A DNA stretch of 64,000 nt from Paraspadella gotoi (Eukaryota; Animalia; Chaetognatha), in contig CM119263.1 of the NCBI GenBank assembly GCA_051294375.1, forward strand, positions 31,174,335-31,238,334. Reading direction: 5' to 3'. Positions 333 to 60,000 of this stretch are shown here, in pieces. The notes beneath the pieces are model-generated. The model was not told the DNA's origin. It saw nothing but the letters and a program-made list of their open reading frames with translations, and searched no databases. The translations under genes and the position numbers were made by a program. Position 1 is the stretch's first letter. Each line of letters opens with the position of its first letter.

Positions 333-3300
333 ATGGCGGACGGGGACGTAGATCTTTACGGCGACGATTTGGCCGAAGACGATTATCAAATGAAATCGGA
401 AAGTAAGAAAATTATATTGTATGAAAATTTGCAAAATGCAAATTACTTGTTTCACTATTTTCTATTTTTATATTTTATGAAGGATTGAGTATATAATCTA
501 TATTATTTAAACAAATATATATTGCTTTTTTTCTTAATTTTTTTTTTATCATTATATCTAATAACTCAATTTGGGAAGGGGAAGTCGGTGTTGTCTTCTG
601 GAAATAGAAGGAGTATGGCAACGGGAGGATAGCCTGTGATACCCGGGGCGCGGGGTATCTCACCAACTGGCGTAGGGGCTGCGGACCCTCAGTGACCGCC
701 TCCTGTCACTGGCATGTTTATACCGGCACCGTCACATTTAAGCCAGAACCGGGATACCCAGGGATTGAACCCGGGACGCACGGATGGAATGAGATGATTT
801 AGCCTGCTCAGCCATTGAGACGAGGCTGAGGACGGACAGCAGTGAGGCAGCTTTTTAAGTCTTGCTGCCACAGGATCCCCCACCAGACTTCTCCACAGGG
901 GCCTCAATCCTGAGGAGATGTCTGAGAGAAGGTTTTGATCTCATTGCCATAGTGAGAGCGAGCGGGCGAGCGAGCGAGCGAGTCTGGAGCGTTACCAGAG
1001 AAGTAGGGCATAGGCGTGATATGCATACCCTAAGCGATGTAAGCGTGGGCGCACGGTGCGCAGCGGTTGCGTGTTCGAGAGTCGGGCTCACCACTTATGG
1101 CAACGGGAGGATAGCCTGTGATACCCGGGGCGCGGGGTATCTCACCAACTGGCGTAGGGCTGCGGACCCTCAGTGACCGCCTCCTGTCACTGGCATGTTT
1201 ATACCGGCACCGTCACATTTAAGCCAGAACCGGGATACCCAGGGATTGAACCCGGGACGCACGGATGGAATGAGATGATTTAGCCTGCTCAGCCATTGAG
1301 ACGAGGCTGAGGACGGACAGCAGTGAGGCAGCTTTTTAAGTCTTGGCTGCCACAGGAGCCTCTATAATTGTGACAACCTTTATGAAATACATTTTCGCCC
1401 TTGAGGAAACGAAGGGGATCAAAATGGCGGCGAAGATTTGTACGACGACGTCTTGACGACGCCGGCTTCGCAGCCGCCGCCCGCCGAAGAGCCCAAGCCT
1501 GCGCCGGCGCCCTCCGTCCCGCCGCTGCTCATGGCCACGCCCATCAATCCGCCCACGGTGTCGTCGTCGCCGAGCGGACATCAGAACTCGCCGAGTGTCC
1601 AATCCGGACAAACGCAGGGAAAACGATTCTCGCTTTATATCGGTATGTCGAGGATACGGGATTTCATCTTTGACCTGGATATAATACTCTCTCTCTCTCT
1701 CTCTCAGGCAACCTGACCTGGTGGACGACTGACCAAGACTTAATCGACGCCATCAACTCTTTGCGCGTCAACGATTTGTTGGAGATCAAGTTTCACGAGA
1801 ATCGAGTCAACGGACAATCAAAAGGCTTCGCTATGGTCGCTTTCAGGTTTTGATTAAATTTCAAGACTTTATTATTAACAATATAAATCATATTAATAAG
1901 TATTTGCTAACTATTACCAGCACGGACGCGAGCGCCAAGAAGGTGATGGAACAACTGCCCAAGATGGAATTACACAACCAGAATCCCGTTGTCACGTGAG
2001 TAGATTTGACGAAGTGAACGACCAAAACGATGACGAAAACGACGACGACGAAGTGAACGACCAAAACGATGAAATGGACGACGTCTGCAACTTTTCTCTT
2101 CTTTAATCAGATTCGTGAATCGATCTGCGCTGAAGCAGTTTGAAGACGCAGCACCGAGTCGTCCCGATCCTCCGCCGCAGCATTACGACAACCGCGGCCG
2201 CAGCAGCGATAGGTAAGTGCATTTTATTCTTCCTCTCTCTCTCTCTCTCATTCTTCGCGTTTCATCTTTCAGGAACGAAAACGGAAGCGGCGCCTCCAAC
2301 TCTGGCTACCGCAGCTCGAGTCAGCAGCCACCGCCGCCGCTGTCCTCAGTGGCGCCTCCATTGTCGGGTCCTCCGCCTTTGGTGAGGCCTCCGTTGCAGG
2401 TAAGTCGCATCGACATTAATCCTTACCTTTTCTTCGCAGTCGATAAGTTCCTTCCATTCCTCCTCAAGCCGGGTTTTCATCCTTCCTCCGGGATGCCACC
2501 CGGTCTTCGCCCCGGTCTTCCTCCTCCGGGCGCACTCCCTCCGGGGATGAGGCCACACGTTCCTCCACCGGGAATGCCCGGCGCTCCGCCCGGTCTCCCT
2601 CCATCTCGAGGTCCGCCTCCGGCCGGCGCCCTTCCGCCGGGCTTCGTCCCGCGCCCCGGGATCGGCATGCCCGGCCTTCCGCCCGTCTCCGGCGCGCCGC
2701 CGCAGTTTCTACGCGGTCCGCCTCCCGGCGCTCATCTGCAGCCGACACAGCTGCAGCATCGACCGCACGGACTCCCGCCGCCGGGAATGCCGCACCCGCA
2801 GCCGCCGCCGGGCGGATTTCCTCACGGATCCATCGCTCCGGGTTAGTCGAGTCGATGGGGCGATTTTTTTTGTGCGTCGGTGATTTCACGTTGTTATCCG
2901 ATTCTTTCCTTTCAGGCGGACACTCTCAGCCACCAGGCCTCCGTCCTCCAGGACCAGGGGCTCCTCCCATGACGTTGCCGCAAGTGGGCGCTCCGCAGCC
3001 TCACATAAACCCCGCGTTCCTGCCCCCGAGGGGACCAGGCGTGCCGCACGGGTCTCTTCCCGGGGCAGGCCCCTCCTCGCATCCGCCGCCGTTCGGCGTC
3101 AGACCTGGAGCCCCGCCTGTCGGCTACCCCGGAGCTCCTGGCCTGGCACCGGCCTTCCAAGGGGATCAGGCGGCCGCCGCGGCGCCGCCGATGTCCGAGT
3201 CGGAGATGGAGGAGCATCTGCAGAGAAACAAGCAGGTGTCGTCCAACGCCATCTCTAGGGCCGTTCAGGTTCGTTTCTTGTTCGAGGGCGACCTTTATTT

Positions 3301-4277
3301 TTATTTTTTATTTTTTATTTTATTATTTATTTTAATATTTATTGTGATGGTCGGAATTGACAGGACGCGTCCGCGGGTGACTACGCTTCGGCCATCGAGA
3401 CTTTGGTCACAGCCATTTCACTTATCAAGCAATCCAAGGTCGCGCAAGATGACAGGTAATTAATCTCTTCAAGTATTTATAGTAGTAGTTCCGTCATTTT
3501 CCTATATTCCATTGCGATTAAGTTTTTTTTTTTTTTTTTTCAATCCAGATGCAAAATTTTGATCTCATCCTTGCAAGACACTCTGCAAGGAATAGAATCT
3601 AGATCCTACGGAGCCAAACACCGAAGCAGGTAACGCATTAAAAAAAAATTAAAAAGGCTGGATTGTATTTCTTTTAAATCATTTTTTGATCAATACCTGT
3701 GTCGGATACCTGGACAATACCTGGACAATCTTATGGACTTCAAACTTACCGATTCATAATATTATTAACCATTGTTTATTTGATTCGTGTTGTTTATATT
3801 TGTTTCCCTTTTAGCTCCCTCTAACACCTGGTTAATATTTCATTAATTATTACTTAATTAATACTTAATAAAAAAAAACTTGATCTCTTTCAGATCCCCA
3901 GTGGAATCGGAACGACGTGAGAAACGCGATAAATCTTCTCGATCTCGACGAGAAAGATCTCGATCTCGCGAACGAGGTCATCGCGAACACAGAGAGCGAC
4001 AGGGTGAGCGACGACGTTGAATCGGAGATACAAATGGAAATCCGCTCGCGAACTTGCTTTTTATCATATTGTACGTTTAATATTGGATATCGGTTATTTA
4101 GATTTTTAACCATTGGTCCGAGAAAATCTGTAATCTGGTTGCGAAGGAATGAATTTTATTCACAATCTTTGACTTTTTTCAGGCGAGTATCGCGAGCGCT
4201 CGCGGGAACGAGAGCACTATCGCGACGACAGCGAGTCCCGTCATCGCGAGCATCGGGAGAGAGAGAGAAGGCATTAA
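333..4277 (+). CDS. CPSF6: Cleavage and polyadenylation specificity factor 6 / CFIm68 (multi-exon span)
   Basis: N-terminus [12 protein letters not shown]...DLYDDV; RRM with [15 protein letters not shown] and [14 protein letters not shown]; long Pro/Gly-rich region; helical segment ([57 protein letters not shown]); C-terminal RS/RE domain ending TAA at 4275-4277; GT-AG introns join in frame. Confidence 0.93.
614..1354 (-). mobile_element. TRIM (non-autonomous miniature LTR retrotransposon) with tRNA-like LTRs, Helenus-like; copy 1, in CPSF6 intron 1
   Basis: Two ~259-bp near-identical direct repeats (614-872, 1096-1354) around a 223-bp non-coding core; on the minus strand the LTR runs TGTGGCAGC...GTTGCCATA; PBS TGGTGAGCCCGAC (1081-1093 rc) 2 nt after the LTR; purine tract before the second LTR; 4-bp TSD GGAG (610-613 / 1355-1358). 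Confidence 0.92.
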
Positions 4278-4834
4278 AATTTTAAGATTTCTTTTCACGA
4301 TCCCACGTTGACCGACCGACTAACTCGAGTCGGAATAATTAAGACTTTTTTGTTTTCGTTTTTTTGTTTCTCAGTTTGAAAAAAAAAAAACACTTTTCCT
4401 CCAGCCTATTGTAAATTTCACCAAATGTTTTATTAAAAGCATAATTGTTTTTACCACGAAATGAACGCCTCTAATAGCGATTTGTTTTTTGGTACGTCTA
4501 GTTGCATTAAGAATCAATTCGAAACGGAATATTGGATAGTTGGTCATTGAAGATTACAAAACTTCTCACATGAAAAATCGCCATAAACTTAATACGGAAT
4601 TTAACCGTGTCTGATGCGCGGCAACAACCTTAACAACGTATACTCAAACCAAAAAAGAATCGTTTTTAATCTTTGGAAGTTCAAAACTGTCGTTTCCATC
4701 CATTTGCAACTTTTTAAAAATATCTCCGTGTTTCCGCGATTGTTTGTTTAAAATTACATTTCGAATCGCTTTATTTTTTCGTAGCCTTCCGTCCATAACG
4801 AGATTGATCGTCAAATGACTCGGACGCGGTCGCG

Positions 4835-7800
4835 ATGCGTCATCAAATCTTCGTCGTCTGCGACGTGACGCGTCCGCCCGTCCGTCTCCTTCCCCGTGAT
4901 TCCTCCTCCTCCGACGACGCCATCTTGTCCGCCGTCGTCTCCGTCGCCGACGTCAACGATGGACAAATCGTCGCCTTCGCGCGTCTAATCGACGACGACG
5001 ACGATCTCGACGTCGCCCTTCGCCTCAAATTCAAACAACGAGATGTCGCTCTGGGTCGACTCTCTCGATGGAGCAGATGCTTGACGTGGGAGGGAGACGC
5101 GTTGAAGGCGTCGAGCGAAGATGAGGAAGAAGATGACGAGGTTACGATTTATTGCGTTTGTCAGGAGGAGGAGGAGGAGGAGGAGGAGAAGCCGAAGGTG
5201 AGGTCAAGGGTAACTTTAGTAGAGGGGAAATTTGACCTTTGGGGTTTTTTGGCTCAAAAATTTCGACGTGGCCTAACTCGCTCTTGTTTCCCTTTCAAAT
5301 TCACAGATGGGCTCATTATGAATCATCAAATTATTAATTTATTATTTGTCCAATCTAAATTTCCAGGAAGTGACTAAAGAAAATTCAACCCCGACGACGA
5401 CGACAATGACGACCACGAAGTCTTCCTTCAAGAGAAAACGCTCCGTCCTCTCCACCGTCAACGATAAAGAGGATGAGACGGAGTCCCAGTCAGATCCCTC
5501 CACCACTCCGCCCGCCTCCGCTCCAAAGAAAGCCAAAGCCGCTCAAACTCCTCGTGGCAGAAAGCCCAAAGTCAACGGCGGAACACCCAAGACGCCAAAG
5601 ACGCCCAAGACTCTTAAAACGCCCAAGACTCCGAAGACTCCCAAGACTCCTTCTCAGTTGAAAACATCGGGAAAGGTCTACAACCCCAACACCGTCTCGG
5701 GATGCTTCCTCAACATGCTCCTGGCCAAGTCGTCCGCGGCCGACGACTCTGAAGATGCGATGGATGAGAAGAATCTTCATCCGACGGCGACGTCGCCCGC
5801 GCACGCTGAGGCGCCATCCGAAGGCAAAGACGGTGCCAAGGAAGCAAAGAGCGAAAAGGCGCCGCCGACGCCGCGAATGGACAAAGACAAACAAAAAACC
5901 GATATCGTCAAAACAGAATCCGCCGTGCCGAGTGATTGCGGCGCCAAAATAGAGAAGGCGTCGGGGAAAGAAAAAGACGCCCCGATGGTGGAGAAGGCGC
6001 CGTCGAGAAACAAAGAGGGCGTTAAGGAGACGAAGGTGGAAAAGGCGCCGGGGACCAAGTTTTTGGTTCAAGCTTTGTTGGGCGACGATTCCGACGGTGA
6101 AGAGAAAAAGGAGGGGGAGAAGGCGGAAGAAGATTCGTGTGAGGTCAGTTGACAAAGAATGATTAACCCAGTTTTCCCATTTATTTCATTGATTTCATTT
6201 CTTTTCCCTTTTTTTTCGCCCACAGTTCCGCATCCTCTCCTCCACAGTCCTCACTCCATCGCCCACAGTCCGTTGGGGCCACAGTCAGTGCTTCGTCTCT
6301 TCCCCCTCTGGTAGTCACGTGGTCGTCGTCGGTGGACAGACGATCAAGAGCGCCTTCTGCCGCGACGCCGCTTGGCTCTTCGATCCCGGATTCGGAGAGT
6401 GGGAGGCGTTGGAGACCGGCGCCGCCGGATCCCAGGTATCTTGAGTGGGAGTGGGGTTGGTTTGTTATTTGCTTTGAAGGGGAAAAGGGGAAAAAAGAAT
6501 CATTTTTAGTGAAGAAATGGAAAAGTTAGGTATTTATTATCCTCCCTCGCTGACAAAGTATTAATCTACTATCTAGGAAAAAAGTATATCACACTTGAGG
6601 GGTATTGAAGGCGTGAGGAAATAGAAAAAAAAATAATAGTATATTTCGCGAAGAGTAAAAATTAAAGAATATATTGTGGCAGCAAGACTTAAAGCTGCCT
6701 CACTGAAACTGTCCGTCCTCAGCCTCGTCTCAATGGCTGAGCAGGCTAAATCTTCTCATTCCATCCGTGCGTCCCGGGTTCAATCCCTGGTATCCCGGTT
6801 CTGGCTTAAATGTGACGGTGCCGGTATAAACATGCCAGTGACAGGAGGCGGTCACTGAAGGTCCGCAGCCCCTACGCCAGTTAGTGAGATACCCCGCGCC
6901 CCGGGTATCACAGGCTATCCTCCCGTTGCCATAAGTGGTGAGCCCTACTCTCGAACACGCAACCACTGCGCACCGTGCGCCCACGCTTACGTCGCTTAGG
7001 GTATGCATATCACGCCTATGCCCTACTTCTCTGGTAACGCTCCAGACTCGCTCGCTCGCTCGCCCGCTCGCTCTCACTATGGCAATGAGATCAAAACCTT
7101 CTCTCAGACATCTCCTCAGGATTGAGGCCCCTGTGGAGAAGTCTGGTGGGGGATCCTGTGGCAGCAAGACTTAAAGCTGCCTCACTGCTGTCCGTCCTCA
7201 GCCTCGTCTCAATGGCTGAGCAGGCTAAATCTTTTCATTCCATCCGTGCGTCCCGGGTTCAATCCTTGGGTATCCCGGTTCTGGCTTAAATGTGACGTGC
7301 CGGTATAAACATGCCATGACAGGAGGCGGTCACTGAGGGTCCCAGCCCCTACGCCAGTTGGTGATATACCCCGCGCCCCGGGTATCACAGGCTATCCTCC
7401 CGTTGCCATAATATCGTTAAACAAAATATACCGAGGGAGGAGGAGGAAGAAAAAAGAGGAAGAAGAAGAGGAGAATGGGACAGCAAGCTAAATCTTCCTC
7501 TGTCATATAATTGTTAATAAAAAATATATAAAACATTGATAAAATATTTTTAATATTTGGTATGCCTTTCCTCGGCATTAATTACTGCTTGCATTTATCT
7601 GGGCATGCTTTCATACAGCAAATTGAGGTATGATAGTAAAATATTTTTTTATATCTTAAACGTAATTATTTTCAGCTCTGTTGTGCGTTTTATGTAGATT
7701 TGGAAACAATCTGATTTTTTTTAAAATCAAACAAGTTTTTGAGTAGATATCCTTTATTAAAAATGTGGTATACTTTTTTCCTAGATAGTAATTCTTATCT

Positions 7801-15808: not shown

Positions 15809-18441
15809 ATGGGGCGAACTGGAGACGAGAAGTTTCAGTGGAAGACGAACTACTTCATGAAGTTGATTCGACTTTTTGACGAATACGAAAAGTTTTTTAT
15901 CGTCGGCGTCGACAATGTGGGGTAATTTGATGCATAAAAATTGAAAAAGATTGTCCTCGAATGCCCTGAATGCCGTAAATCTTTGTCTAGGTCCAACCAG
16001 ATGCAGCAGATCCGCATCTCCCTTCGCGGTTCCGCCGATGTCCTCATGGGAAAAAACACGATGATGCGAAAAGTCATTCGCGGTCGTTTGGAGACGAACC
16101 CCACTTTGGAAAAGGTCTCCCTTAAATCTTGGGATACGTATTTCGTGTCTTTTACCAAATTATTTCTATACTAAATGATGACAAAAATTTATTCATTGAT
16201 TGAATCTGTGATTCATGATCTTTTCAGTACCTTTACCGACTGAAGACAAAGAACTTTGACGACTCTGCCGACTTTTTCAAATCCTTTCTTTCAACATTCT
16301 CTCGTTTCTTTTCCCGCCCTCCCTTTCTCTCAACCCTGTTCCAATTCCTCCGTCCACACCGAAGATCCTCCCCCACATCGTCCGCAACGTCGGCTTCGTC
16401 TTCACGAAGGAAGACTTGACCGAAATCCGCGACCGCCTCGTCTCTAACCGGAAGCCGGCGGCGGCCAAAGCCGGCGCCTTGGCTCCGGTCGACGTCTACG
16501 TTCCTTCGCTCAACACGGGCCTCGGCCCAGAAAAGACTTCCTTCTTTCAGGTTTTCCTTTTTTCCTTCTTTGAAATTAAGGAACCATGGCTCGTCTCTGT
16601 TTGACGTTTTTTTTTTCATTTAGATTTGCCGTTTATTTTTATTTTTTATACTCCGCTTTTGCATACAAACGCTTTTCTCCCTGTGAACTAAACCTCCTCG
16701 TTTTTGCAGTTTTTCTCTCCGTTCCCCAAAATCGGTCCAAGCGTATTTCCCCCTCTTCGCTCGGGACACTGAAACTGGAGGGAATGACCCGTGAAAACAA
16801 ATCTGCGGTAAATTTCGTTGACGTGTTTCCGTCTATCCGTTTGGTGTTAATGAATTCCCGTTTGGTTACCAATTCATCATTCGTCCGTCGGCGACATTCA
16901 ACTCTTTCTTAAATGTCCAGGCTCTCAACATCCCCACTAAGATCACGAGAGGCTGCATCGAAATCCTCTCCGCGACGAAGATGTGCACCGAAGGTGAGAG
17001 GGTCGGCGCCTCCGAGGCCACCTTGCTCGCCATGCTCGGTATTCAGCCTTTTTCCTACGGCTTAGAAGTCAAGGTTCGTAGCTCATGTCCATTTTTGTGA
17101 CGCGAGCTGTCTATGCCACGCCCCACCTGTCTCATCCCCAGATGGTCTACGACAACGGGTCCCTTTACCACCCGTCGATCCTGGACATCACCGACGACGA
17201 CGTTCGCGCTCGATTCCTTCAAGGCGCCGCCACCGTCACTATGGTCTCCCTTGCCATTGGGTACCCGACCAAGCTCTCCGTTCCTCATATGATCGCTAAT
17301 GGATTCAGGTGACACGAATTTGACGACGTATGGATGAACCTCATTACTCATTAGTGCGTAACAGATGTGCTTTTAGTATAGCTTGGGTAAACCAGTGTGT
17401 AGATCTTGGAGAAACGGTCAAATATTCTTATCAAAACTTGACTCGGTTTTTAAAATTAATGGTTAATTTTGAAGGAGCCGAGGAAGGATCATTGCGAAGC
17501 CGGGGGTTTTTCAATTACGGCTTGATTTCTTTTCGATTGTTAACATTTTTTCTTGCACCAGACGGCTTATAAAATAATAGAAATTATGACAAGGCAATGC
17601 CAATACGACAATATGCAAATGAGGTTGATGAACTCAATCTCATTCTTGGTTGCATCAAAAGTTCCTTCCTTAGAATAACGCTCACTCGGCTGGAATGAAG
17701 AACATGTTATTAAATACGAATCAAAGAACATTAATATGAAACGAGAGAATAAAGAAATAAAGATTAAGTCTTTAAATAATCATATAGTATGGCAACGGAG
17801 GGACATGTGTGATGCCTGGGGTGTGAGGCATCTCCCGACAGCTGGCGCTCAGGGCTTTGGACCCTCAGTGACCACCCCATGTCACTGGCGCGTTTATGCC
17901 GACACCATCACACTTTAACCAGCCTGACCGTGAGGGGATTGAACCCGGAACTCACGGTTGGTGAATGAGTTCTTGGCTGTCCAAGCCAATGGGACGAGCT
18001 GAGTTTCACCAAGCTATACGGGAGGCGAATTTAGGATTCGCCACAATAGTCTATTATTGAAGATCAATATCGAGAATCCGATTTCAATCCACGAGAAACC
18101 CGATTTCCATTCGTGAGACTCTGCTTCCAACATTTTCACGTCGTCGTCCCAGGAATTTATTGGCCGTCGCCGTGGAGACCGACTACACTTTTAAAGAGGC
18201 GGCGGGAATTAAGGAGTTTCTATCTGATCCTTCGAAGATGGAGGCTTTGGTCGCCGCCGCCTCCGCCGCCGCCGCAGCCGAGGCTCCTGCCGAAAAGGAG
18301 GAAGAGGTACCTCGATATCAAAAAATTAAATTCGTTAAAAATTAATTTAATTAATTAATTGGTTCATAGGCCCCACCGGCCAAGGAGGAGGAGGAAGAGG
18401 ATTCCTCGGAGGAGGACATGGGATTCGGACTTTTTGACTGA
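15809..18441 (+). CDS. RPLP0: 60S acidic ribosomal protein P0 (uL10)
   Basis: [87 protein letters not shown]; C-terminal [18 protein letters not shown]-stop. Confidence 0.97.
16175..16243 (+). ncRNA. Candidate intronic C/D box snoRNA in RPLP0 intron
   Basis: Perfect C box ATGATGA (16175-16181) and D box CTGA (16240-16243) spanning 69 nt in an enlarged ribosomal-protein intron; no clear terminal stem and no verified target. Confidence 0.35.
17788..18045 (-). mobile_element. Solo LTR of a diverged subfamily of the tRNA-LTR TRIM, in an RPLP0 intron
   Basis: 258 bp; minus-strand termini TGTGGCG...GTTGCCATA; B box GGGTTCAATCCCC; colinear with the 259-bp LTRs; 4-bp TSD ATAG (17784-17787 / 18046-18049). 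Confidence 0.88.
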
Positions 18442-20921: not shown

Positions 20922-22179
20922 ATGTCCGACACCAGAACATGCCGAAGATGTGAAAAGGTGAGTGAAGGCGGAGTTTGAATTGTCTCGTCCCAGAAAGACT
21001 CATCGATTTACTCGTTCCTTTGAGGTGGGCCACATCGCCCGTAACTGCCCCTCGAAACCAGCGGAGGGCGCACCGGGCGCGATGGGCGAAGGCGGAAGAG
21101 GCGGCGGCGGCCGGGGGCGCGTCTTTACTCGGGGAGGTGATTTTTGGTCGCATAACTTGCATATTATTAAATTGAAAAAATATCTCTCCTGACTCGTTAA
21201 TTTATATCCCGTTTTTGTGACGAAATAACCGGTTGACCGTCATTGTGTAATAGAATAATTTGTGGTTCATTTCAAATGAGATTGAACAACTCAAAAGAAG
21301 AATCACAAAATCTCTTCCGATCCACGACCCTCATTTCTGCATCCAATTTGATCATAAATGCAGGCGGTCGCGGTCGAGGTGGGCGTGGAGGCGGATTCGG
21401 CAACATGGCCGATGTACAGTGTTACAACTGCGCCCAGATGGGTCATATCGCCAGGTAAGGTCGTTTGGAGTTTTTTAAGTTATTATGTGGAATTTTTAAG
21501 TCCTACCCTTTCTCATTTATTTTGTAGCCAACGAAAGGAAGATGAGGAGAGAGAGAGAGNNNNNNNNNNAGAGAGAGAGAGAAAACGCAGGATGACAATT
21601 AATGCCTTTTTTAAGAAAAAAAATAACGTTTTCCAATCTTAAGCAAATGCGAGAACGAGCGCGTGGAAATGTCTCGGCCGCGTGGCGGTCGTGGTGGCGG
21701 ACGCGGCGGCCGCAGAGGGGGCGGCGGTGGAGGAGGAGGATATGCCGAAGTCGACTGTTACAACTGCGGGGAACTCGGCCACATCGCCAAGTTAGACTCT
21801 GGAAGGTTTTTCATGTGATGTACGGATAAAAGAGTCTCATTCTTGTTTGTCTTCAGTGATTGCACGAACGAGCGCGTCGAGGGGGCGGGTCCATCCCGCG
21901 GCCGGGGACGCGGTCGCGGCGGCGGTGGTGGTGGCGGCGGCGGCGGCAGCGGAGTCCCCATGGAGGACGTTGTGTGCCACAACTGTTCGCGCACGGGACA
22001 CTTCATGAGAAACTGCCCCGATAAGTCACTCGACAACATCAAGTGTTACAGGTCAGGGATGTGATAGTTTAATAGTTTTACGTTGTGTAATAGTGTCACG
22101 ATTGACCATAACCTATCTTGTGATCAGATGTAATGTTATGGGCCACTTTGCGCGCGACTGTCCCAACGAGGAAGAGTAA
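20922..22179 (+). CDS. CNBP/Gis2-like protein with five CCHC zinc knuckles separated by RGG-rich linkers
   Basis: Spliced exons give CRRCEKVGHIARNC, CYNCAQMGHIARQC, CYNCGELGHIANDC, CHNCSRTGHFMRNC and CYRCNVMGHFARDC with GRGRGG linkers; stop TAA 22177-22179. Confidence 0.85.
21560..21569. other. Assembly gap (10 N) inside an intronic (GA)n tract
   Basis: Run of n characters flanked by GAGA repeats. Confidence 0.99.

Positions 22180-56712: not shown

Positions 56713-60000
<3,288 letters not shown>

Follow-up and report, generated by a model that had tools for sequence, protein, structure and literature searches.

A twister ribozyme fold in the long terminal repeats of a Helenus-type miniature retrotransposon with tRNA-type promoter boxes

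How might an element whose long terminal repeats (LTRs) carry tRNA-type promoter boxes make an RNA that starts in one LTR and ends only in the identical second one? The question is raised by a family of short retrotransposons in a 64,000-nucleotide stretch of the Paraspadella gotoi genome (contig CM119263.1, positions 31,174,335 to 31,238,334; hereafter the window). A first-pass annotation had described two complete copies of ~740 bp, each consisting of an LTR, a primer binding site (PBS), a 223-bp core, a polypurine tract (PPT) and a second LTR, with different target site duplications (TSDs), and its coordinates and anatomy hold. Copy 1 (614-1354, minus strand) measures 741 bp (259+223+259; 5′ LTR 1096-1354, core 873-1095, 3′ LTR 614-872) and is bounded by GGAG at 610-613 and 1355-1358. 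Copy 2 (6675-7410, plus strand) measures 736 bp (259+223+254; 5′ LTR 6675-6933, core 6934-7156, 3′ LTR 7157-7410) and is bounded by ATAT at 6671-6674 and 7411-7414. The two copies form family 1 and are 96.9% identical. Missed by that annotation were a third insertion, the solo LTR of a second family (17788-18045, minus strand; 258 bp, ~73% identical to family 1 by self-BLAST; TSD ATAG at 17784-17787 and 18046-18049), and, in every LTR, a twister ribozyme fold. All three insertions have 4-bp TSDs.

The fold is of type P5 (circularly permuted) and lies 24 nt behind box B in each LTR. Its order is P5, (U/A)AA, P2′, GA(C/U)GG, a short P1 hairpin, UAA, P2, GC, P3, P4 with a 10-nt loop, and P5′. This order matches the Rfam Twister-P5 consensus (RF02684, clan CL00120; P2′-GANGG-P1 hairpin-UAA-P2-GC-P4-L4-P4′), as do the conserved bases and both pseudoknots. 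It differs from RF02684 in an added P3 of 22 nt, a P1 reduced to 2 bp, a closed P5 and a score under every Rfam threshold. Twisters occur in three permutations, with P3 and P5 optional (PMC5408937; published sources are cited throughout for the parts drawn on here). In the 3′ LTR of copy 1 all pairings are intact (667-746, minus strand; predicted cut 720/719). The 5′ LTR twister of the same copy (1149-1227, minus strand; predicted cut 1201/1200) lacks one base of a G/C run as assembled, and that base is present in many family contigs. Copy 2 carries a twister with one P4 mismatch in its 5′ LTR (6801-6880, plus strand; predicted cut after 6827) and a damaged one with three single-base gaps, due to decay or assembly error, in its 3′ LTR (7281-7357, plus strand). 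The solo LTR twister lies at 17842-17922 (minus strand; predicted cut 17896/17895), with an imperfect P4. The conserved bases (UAA, GA, GC, GU...AGCC) and the permuted order were found in four of the five LTRs, with pairing in P2 (4/4), T1 (3/3) and P1 (2/2); P4 pairs fully (3/3) in one of the five. Judged from sequence, the catalytic bases are intact, and both pseudoknots, T1 and T2, can form.

Of the 138 cells scored over the five LTRs of the window, 98.6% pair, with four two-sided changes: one in P2, one in T1 and two compensatory pair changes between the families in a 7-bp hairpin behind the ribozyme (638-659, minus strand). This count excludes P4 and T2, where the solo LTR is out of register by one base in the alignment, and the structure was drawn from the same sequences. 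Specifically, T1 changes from C-G to U-A and P2 from A-U to G-C between the families. In sequencing run X4, ~80% of the depth at 17864-17865 and 98% at 17891 reads letters other than those of the solo copy, and these majority letters give family 2 a Watson-Crick P2 and a fully paired P4 (CAG/CUG, where family 1 has AGG/CCU). Among the variants listed (36 more lie beyond these), ~18% of the family-2 depth reads the family-1 P3 loop, likely from family-1 contigs placed there. The solo LTR itself has a family-1-like patch at P4 (17859-17873) that differs from most family-2 contigs, possibly through recombination or conversion between the families. In family 1, P1 is weak and the trans A.A pair has a C in place of an A. 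In a bulk test of natural twisters, P1 defects and the A-to-C change at the trans A.A pair left cleavage undiminished, the forms studied being type P1 (PMC11662667). We hold it very probable that the twister fold is under selection and, with slightly less assurance, highly likely that LTR RNA cleaves at it.

In a permissive Rfam scan, the best match was twister-P1 for both the solo LTR (16.8 bits, E 0.58) and the family-1 LTR (14.5 bits, E 0.85), each time confined to the 3′ half of the motif. When the solo twister's 5′ half was scanned by itself, it matched nothing in Rfam, and the element gave no hammerhead match. Matches to mir-767, SNORA61, CRISPR-DR36, sR1, sR14, mir-921, GHRLOS and Guanidine-I were at chance level and were set aside. 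A descriptor written from the Rfam consensus found four of the five LTRs (one with a perfect P4), missing the damaged copy 2 3′ LTR, and matched nothing else in the window; in shuffled sequence it matched 0 of 600 window strands and 0 of 100,000 LTRs, also with P4 and P5 dropped. In a viral control, the sequence motif alone occurred at 19 loci, of which only L005 and L014 form T1, P4 and P1 together with three or more of the four P2 pairs. These are the same two loci that Rfam scores as Twister-P5 (43.9 and 34.1 bits), and one of them has the T1 variant of family 1 together with the P4 of family 2. As a side observation, L014:298-348 (minus strand) is a viral type-P5 twister under the Rfam cut-off that overlaps a match to the M23 RNA family, and M23 may be twister-related.

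The first-pass annotation had placed A and B boxes in each LTR. They are present, in the LTR 5′ half, with box A reading TGGCTGAGCAGG and box B GGTTCAATCCC at a start-to-start distance of 43 nt (copy 1 5′ LTR: box A 1284-1295, box B 1242-1252, minus strand; other family-1 LTRs: 761-814, 6734-6787 and 7213-7266), but the strict box A pattern fails in the solo LTR (box B 17935-17945, minus strand), which meets the minimal A/B pattern only, and box B of the copy 2 3′ LTR has one change. The four strict box B matches in the 64-kb window all lie inside these LTRs. TGGCT and GGTTC occur in both families, and family 1 box A reads AGG where YGG is expected. The strict A+B pattern arose in 5 of 20,000 LTR shuffles and the minimal pattern of Kojima (2024; PMC10886601) in 933 of 20,000. 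Neither ARAGORN nor Rfam recognised a tRNA in the LTRs, and a functional tRNA was rejected on that basis; the motifs are promoter boxes, not a cloverleaf. These boxes make transcription of the element by RNA polymerase III (Pol III) likely. The sense strands of copy 1 and of the solo LTR contain no run of three or more T, and the first TTTT lies 177 nt past copy 1.

The PBS is TGG-led and Trp-like. The earlier figure of a 12/13 match to the Trp end applies to copy 1 (1081-1093, minus strand; 2 nt behind the LTR), but not to copy 2 (6936-6948, plus strand; 11/13) or to the family at large: at position 1083, another base accounts for 483,771 of 487,728 depth units in X4 and for all depth in runs X5, X7 and X9, so that more than 99% of the family depth matches at 11/13. 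These counts refer to the Trp end that Kojima gives in Fig S2, and by eye Trp was the best match among the ends shown in that figure. Half tRNA-iMet priming, as in fungal Helenus, was discarded because, judged by eye, it fits less well than the Trp end with its leading TGG. An imperfect PPT (873-894, minus strand; 15/20 purines) precedes the 3′ LTR of copy 1. The LTR termini read TGTGGCA...TGCCATA, in agreement with the TG...TA ends reported earlier; the solo LTR has the same end motifs, and in each family the flank consensus is ATAT on either side of the LTR. A Penelope-type pseudo-LTR was ruled out by the PBS, PPT, terminal inverted repeat and 4-bp TSDs. No frame of the element matched Pfam, consistent with the lack of coding capacity first noted, although antisense stop-free frames of 105 and 146 codons cross it.

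The LTRs of copy 1 are indeed almost identical (0 substitutions, 2 gap columns). Of these two single-base differences, the one at 1345 does not appear in junction contigs from any of the three DNA runs compared, the gap at 1156 is filled in many family contigs, and both may be assembly errors. The LTRs of copy 2 differ by 5 substitutions and 7 gap columns. Each copy has private variants that are common to both its LTRs and missing from the other copy, as expected when both LTRs are copied from one RNA. The near-identity of its LTRs had led to copy 1 being called a recent insertion, a claim that we soften: its junction is spanned by at least 31 letters in X5 and X7 (28 letters in X4, left uncounted), and the insertion is therefore common to several samples.

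The region is present in nine sequencing runs from three studies of one organism. Summed contig depth, which does not equal copy number, reached 626,803 (X4), 142,763 (X5) and 134,035 (X7) over the family-1 LTR, compared to ~180-235, 38 and 27 in the flanking DNA; the core bin of family 1 had a depth of 349,306, 9,210 and 12,432, respectively. Family 2 reached 400,000-740,000 in X4 against a background of ~190-400. Distinct flank contigs at one LTR end numbered at least 34, 24 and 21 for family 1 and at least 85 for family 2, and thousands of contigs from independent runs cover both LTR families. Both families are highly repeated in the host. In X9, presumed to be RNA, GT..AG skips were seen and both families were present, in contigs that reveal no level, strand or ends. 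Runs X10 and X11, from organisms B and C, had nothing on the solo LTR at 80% likeness, which is uninformative either way. DNA-pattern searches for relatives gave no hits in JGI metagenomes, the first pattern fitting only family 1 and the window's solo copy, and none in prokaryote genomes.

We propose that Pol III likely uses the A/B boxes and that the RNA would be cut by the twister in both LTRs at U|AA, which is LTR position 153/154 in each. In copy 1, the predicted cut-to-cut unit RNA (720-1200, minus strand) is 481 nt long, or 482 with the missing base, and runs from the twister 3′ half through LTR end, PBS, core, PPT, LTR start and A/B boxes to the twister 5′ half. Such a unit has no terminal repeat and therefore would need closing, as argued for plant retrozymes, in which the same geometry is taken to need a circular template (PMC4918200). 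Closure would fall to a host RtcB-type ligase; animal retrozyme RNAs are closed by RtcB in vitro (PMC7229834). A tRNA (best match Trp) would prime at the PBS, copying round the circle would rebuild two LTRs, and a Gypsy (mdg3-like) helper would provide reverse transcription and integration. The helper type is indicated by TG...TA ends, a 4-bp TSD and an ATAT target motif as in Spoink (gypsy/mdg3; PMC10965091). Unlike the present element, Spoink is autonomous, 5.2 kb long and from Drosophila, and the likeness is one of termini, TSD and target motif, not of compared sequence; a Gypsy-type helper is our best guess, by analogy. In most Pol III units the RNA end is set by a T-run; here the ribozyme would set it. 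The missing T-run in copy 1 fits such a ribozyme-ended unit, and chance explains it equally. A twister in the LTR likely changes the route from that of an ordinary terminal-repeat retrotransposon in miniature (TRIM) to a retrozyme-like one. For the full route (Pol III transcription, self-cutting in both LTRs, a circle and a Gypsy-type helper), we estimate a probability of about 0.6.

The outer kind of the element is familiar, and by Kojima's definition it can be filed as a Helenus-type TRIM, in line with the first-pass annotation's view of a Helenus-like family with 4-bp TSDs in an animal. For animal Helenus (TRIMp3), a Gypsy helper has been proposed, and Pol III transcription is described as not validated (PMC10886601). 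As in Helenus, the elements are <1 kb and non-coding, with box A/B LTRs, PBS, PPT, 4-bp TSDs, solo LTRs and several families per genome (PMC10886601), and the Trp PBS recalls Helenus-2_SyJa (PMC10886601). Unlike Helenus, ~146 nt of LTR follow box B here, with the twister fold, and the host lies outside insects and molluscs. In the portions of Data S1 examined, most Helenus LTRs stop a short way past their tRNA part, and many of them finish on a T-run, which is missing from fish families; the Mnemiopsis LTR has a long tail (PMC10886601). Nine twister-loop spellings had no match in Helenus Data S1, and the LTR end motif and PBS spelling had none in the Helenus supplement (PMC10886601); judged by these terms, the element is none of the families catalogued there. 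The parts of PMC10886601 drawn on do not mention a ribozyme in Helenus and name hammerheads only in a reference title. These consensuses were examined by short terms and partly by eye.

By eye, the tRNA-like part in the LTRs of Helenus-2_SyJa and Helenus-2_SyUm, from Synergus gall wasps, is directly followed by a complete type III hammerhead, with a 7-bp stem I, a GUC site, a 6-bp stem III and an 11-bp loop-loop pairing. This hammerhead is unremarked in the same parts of PMC10886601. These are the two families with a Trp PBS, and no T4 run separates their tRNA-like head from the hammerhead. They thus resemble the present element, by eye, in a tRNA-like head in the LTR 5′ half followed by a self-cleaving motif, and in the Trp PBS; they differ in the ribozyme, hammerhead there and twister here, and no sequence likeness was seen. 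We would give even odds to the broader proposition that animals harbour overlooked Pol III LTR retrozymes: tRNA-headed mini-LTR elements with a ribozyme in the terminator's place, its class interchangeable (twister here, hammerhead in the two wasp Helenus families), that spread via small circular RNAs and mdg3-like Gypsy machinery.

Plant LTR retrozymes are similar in being non-coding, with a ribozyme in each LTR, a PBS, a PPT, 4-bp TSDs, a Gypsy helper and a unit without R repeat (PMC4918200). They differ in their type III hammerhead, tRNA-Met PBS and LTRs of 300-400 bp (PMC4918200). In addition, the parts of PMC4918200 drawn on report no tRNA-type boxes, and cleavage and circles, predicted here, were shown there. 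The element is built like an LTR retrozyme but is not filed as one, as it has a twister fold in place of the hammerhead. Two further systems are comparable in part. The twister T-variants of Perere-3 place a twister in a retroelement (PMC8501958), and the hammerhead SINE-like repeats of Schistosoma have a Pol III promoter followed by a ribozyme (PMC6765202), but both are non-LTR and lack the LTR pair, PBS, PPT and integrase-type 4-bp TSD.

A number of observations weigh against the proposed route. The Rfam scores of 16.8 and 14.5 bits compare with a twister-P1 gathering score of 67.2, and no Twister-P5 match was listed for the window, in a scan that suppresses overlapping clan matches and uses a P5 model with a long P1 but no P3. 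The descriptor was post hoc, written with the sequence known, and its strict form passes one of the five window LTRs. P1 has 2 bp, compared to ~8 in the Rfam P5 consensus. Pseudoknot-blind nearest-neighbour folding favours other folds by 6.5 and 14 kcal/mol and gives high pair probability only to P5 and P3, with P2 and P4 low. The covariation comes from two lineages only, and the predicted circle is modestly structured (z −2.3; 63% paired vs 60% in shuffles). No TTTT occurs in 37% of shuffles and no TTT in 25% of dinucleotide shuffles, which rules out the missing T-run as proof of selection. The PBS is imperfect in the family. No reverse transcriptase, integrase or gag was found in the 14 of 23 window frames of at least 150 aa and the 142 of 187 frames of 80-149 aa examined, and no tandem arrays were seen. 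Finally, cleavage, circle and Pol III use are themselves predictions here.

Among the alternatives, the strongest, though we regard it as rather unlikely, is that the twister serves only to form the RNA 3′ end: the 5′ copy would be blocked or slow and the 3′ copy would cut, giving a linear RNA with a ~100-nt repeat, ordinary LTR strand transfer and no circle. The competing folds predicted, the retention of an ordinary PBS and PPT, and the standing of the circle as a prediction all suit this alternative, and the variants common to both LTRs of a copy fit either route. Against it, the same motif follows the same upstream head in both LTRs, and P5, which closes with probability 0.9-1.0 within the LTR, does so before the PBS is transcribed, so that no 5′-specific blocker is evident. 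Less probable is a version in which cutting and circle formation hold but Pol II or read-through makes the RNA and the A/B boxes are mere leftovers. Box A is degenerate in family 2, no tRNA was recognised, copy 1 begins ~50 bp from where a spliced host transcript starts and is directed away from that transcript, and plant retrozyme LTRs carry their own mapped promoter (PMC12029980). Yet box B (11/11 nt) and the TGGCT of box A are identical, at tRNA-like spacing, across families that differ at about one third of positions.

We think it slightly less probable again that this is an ordinary Helenus TRIM with a captured and now inactive twister tail, derived perhaps from the head of an RTE element or the tail of a Penelope-like one. 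Twisters do occur at RTE 5′ ends (PMC8501958), four of the five window LTRs have some imperfection, and the Rfam scores are low; but T1, P2 and P4 show compensatory changes and the catalytic bases are constant in two high-copy families that have diverged, which points to selection within the LTR. That the fold arose by chance, or that the element is an assembly artefact, is very improbable and already largely refuted by the shuffle and viral controls and by the thousands of contigs from independent runs, even though the descriptor was post hoc and several single-base gaps in the window resemble sequencing errors.

Thus what is known is the outer Helenus kind, described in 2024, and what is new is the twister fold inside the LTR. 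No LTR element with a twister came up in our literature search; Repbase, Dfam and most subscription papers were outside its scope, as were the twister lists of Roth et al. 2014 and the supplements of two bioRxiv preprints, which could hold such elements. In the published record, twisters are known from the 5′ ends of RTE elements and from viroid-like circles, and LTR retrozymes come mainly from plants (PMC6765202, PMC7761336, PMC8501958, PMC13570524, 10.64898/2026.07.22.740005, 10.1101/2022.07.19.500677); LTR retrozymes are described mainly with hammerheads, while animal retrozymes are non-LTR (PMC7229834; preprint 10.64898/2026.07.22.740005). If the cut-and-circle route is true, the element joins a tRNA-type LTR promoter, a twister ribozyme and Gypsy-type integration, so far separate, in an animal, and the twister would gain a second role in retroelements. 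The puzzle of a Pol III LTR, posed at the outset, becomes testable. That a high-copy family makes a small circular RNA is a further prediction of the route, and the catalogued Helenus consensuses merit rescanning for ribozymes.

The surroundings of the three insertions are varied. The start of copy 1 (1354) lies ~50 bp from the first base of the spliced host transcript contig 1406-5155, facing away, and a minus-strand gene seems to have copy 2 upstream of it in a similar way. Copy 2 is nested in a ~484-bp element with 30-bp terminal inverted repeats (6567-6596 and 7761-7790) bounded by TA; this element has raised depth and varied flanks in the reads and is probably a Tc1/mariner-type miniature inverted-repeat transposable element. 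The solo LTR sits between two exons of a ribosomal P0-like gene, with a high-depth repeat (17581-17688) beside it in the same intron.

Elsewhere in the window, an intronless SPT16 gene (56713-60000, plus strand) stands in a compact, short-intron genome that lacks an annotated close relative. No named animal protein exceeds 66% identity to its product. A 47-row tree, built without nemerteans, ctenophores and vertebrates, places it outside molluscs and arthropods, next to Priapulus, with support of 92 and long branches, a placement that is unsure. An isolated zinc knuckle at 21819-22061 (plus strand; Pfam E 1e-5) belongs to either a host gene or a gag remnant.

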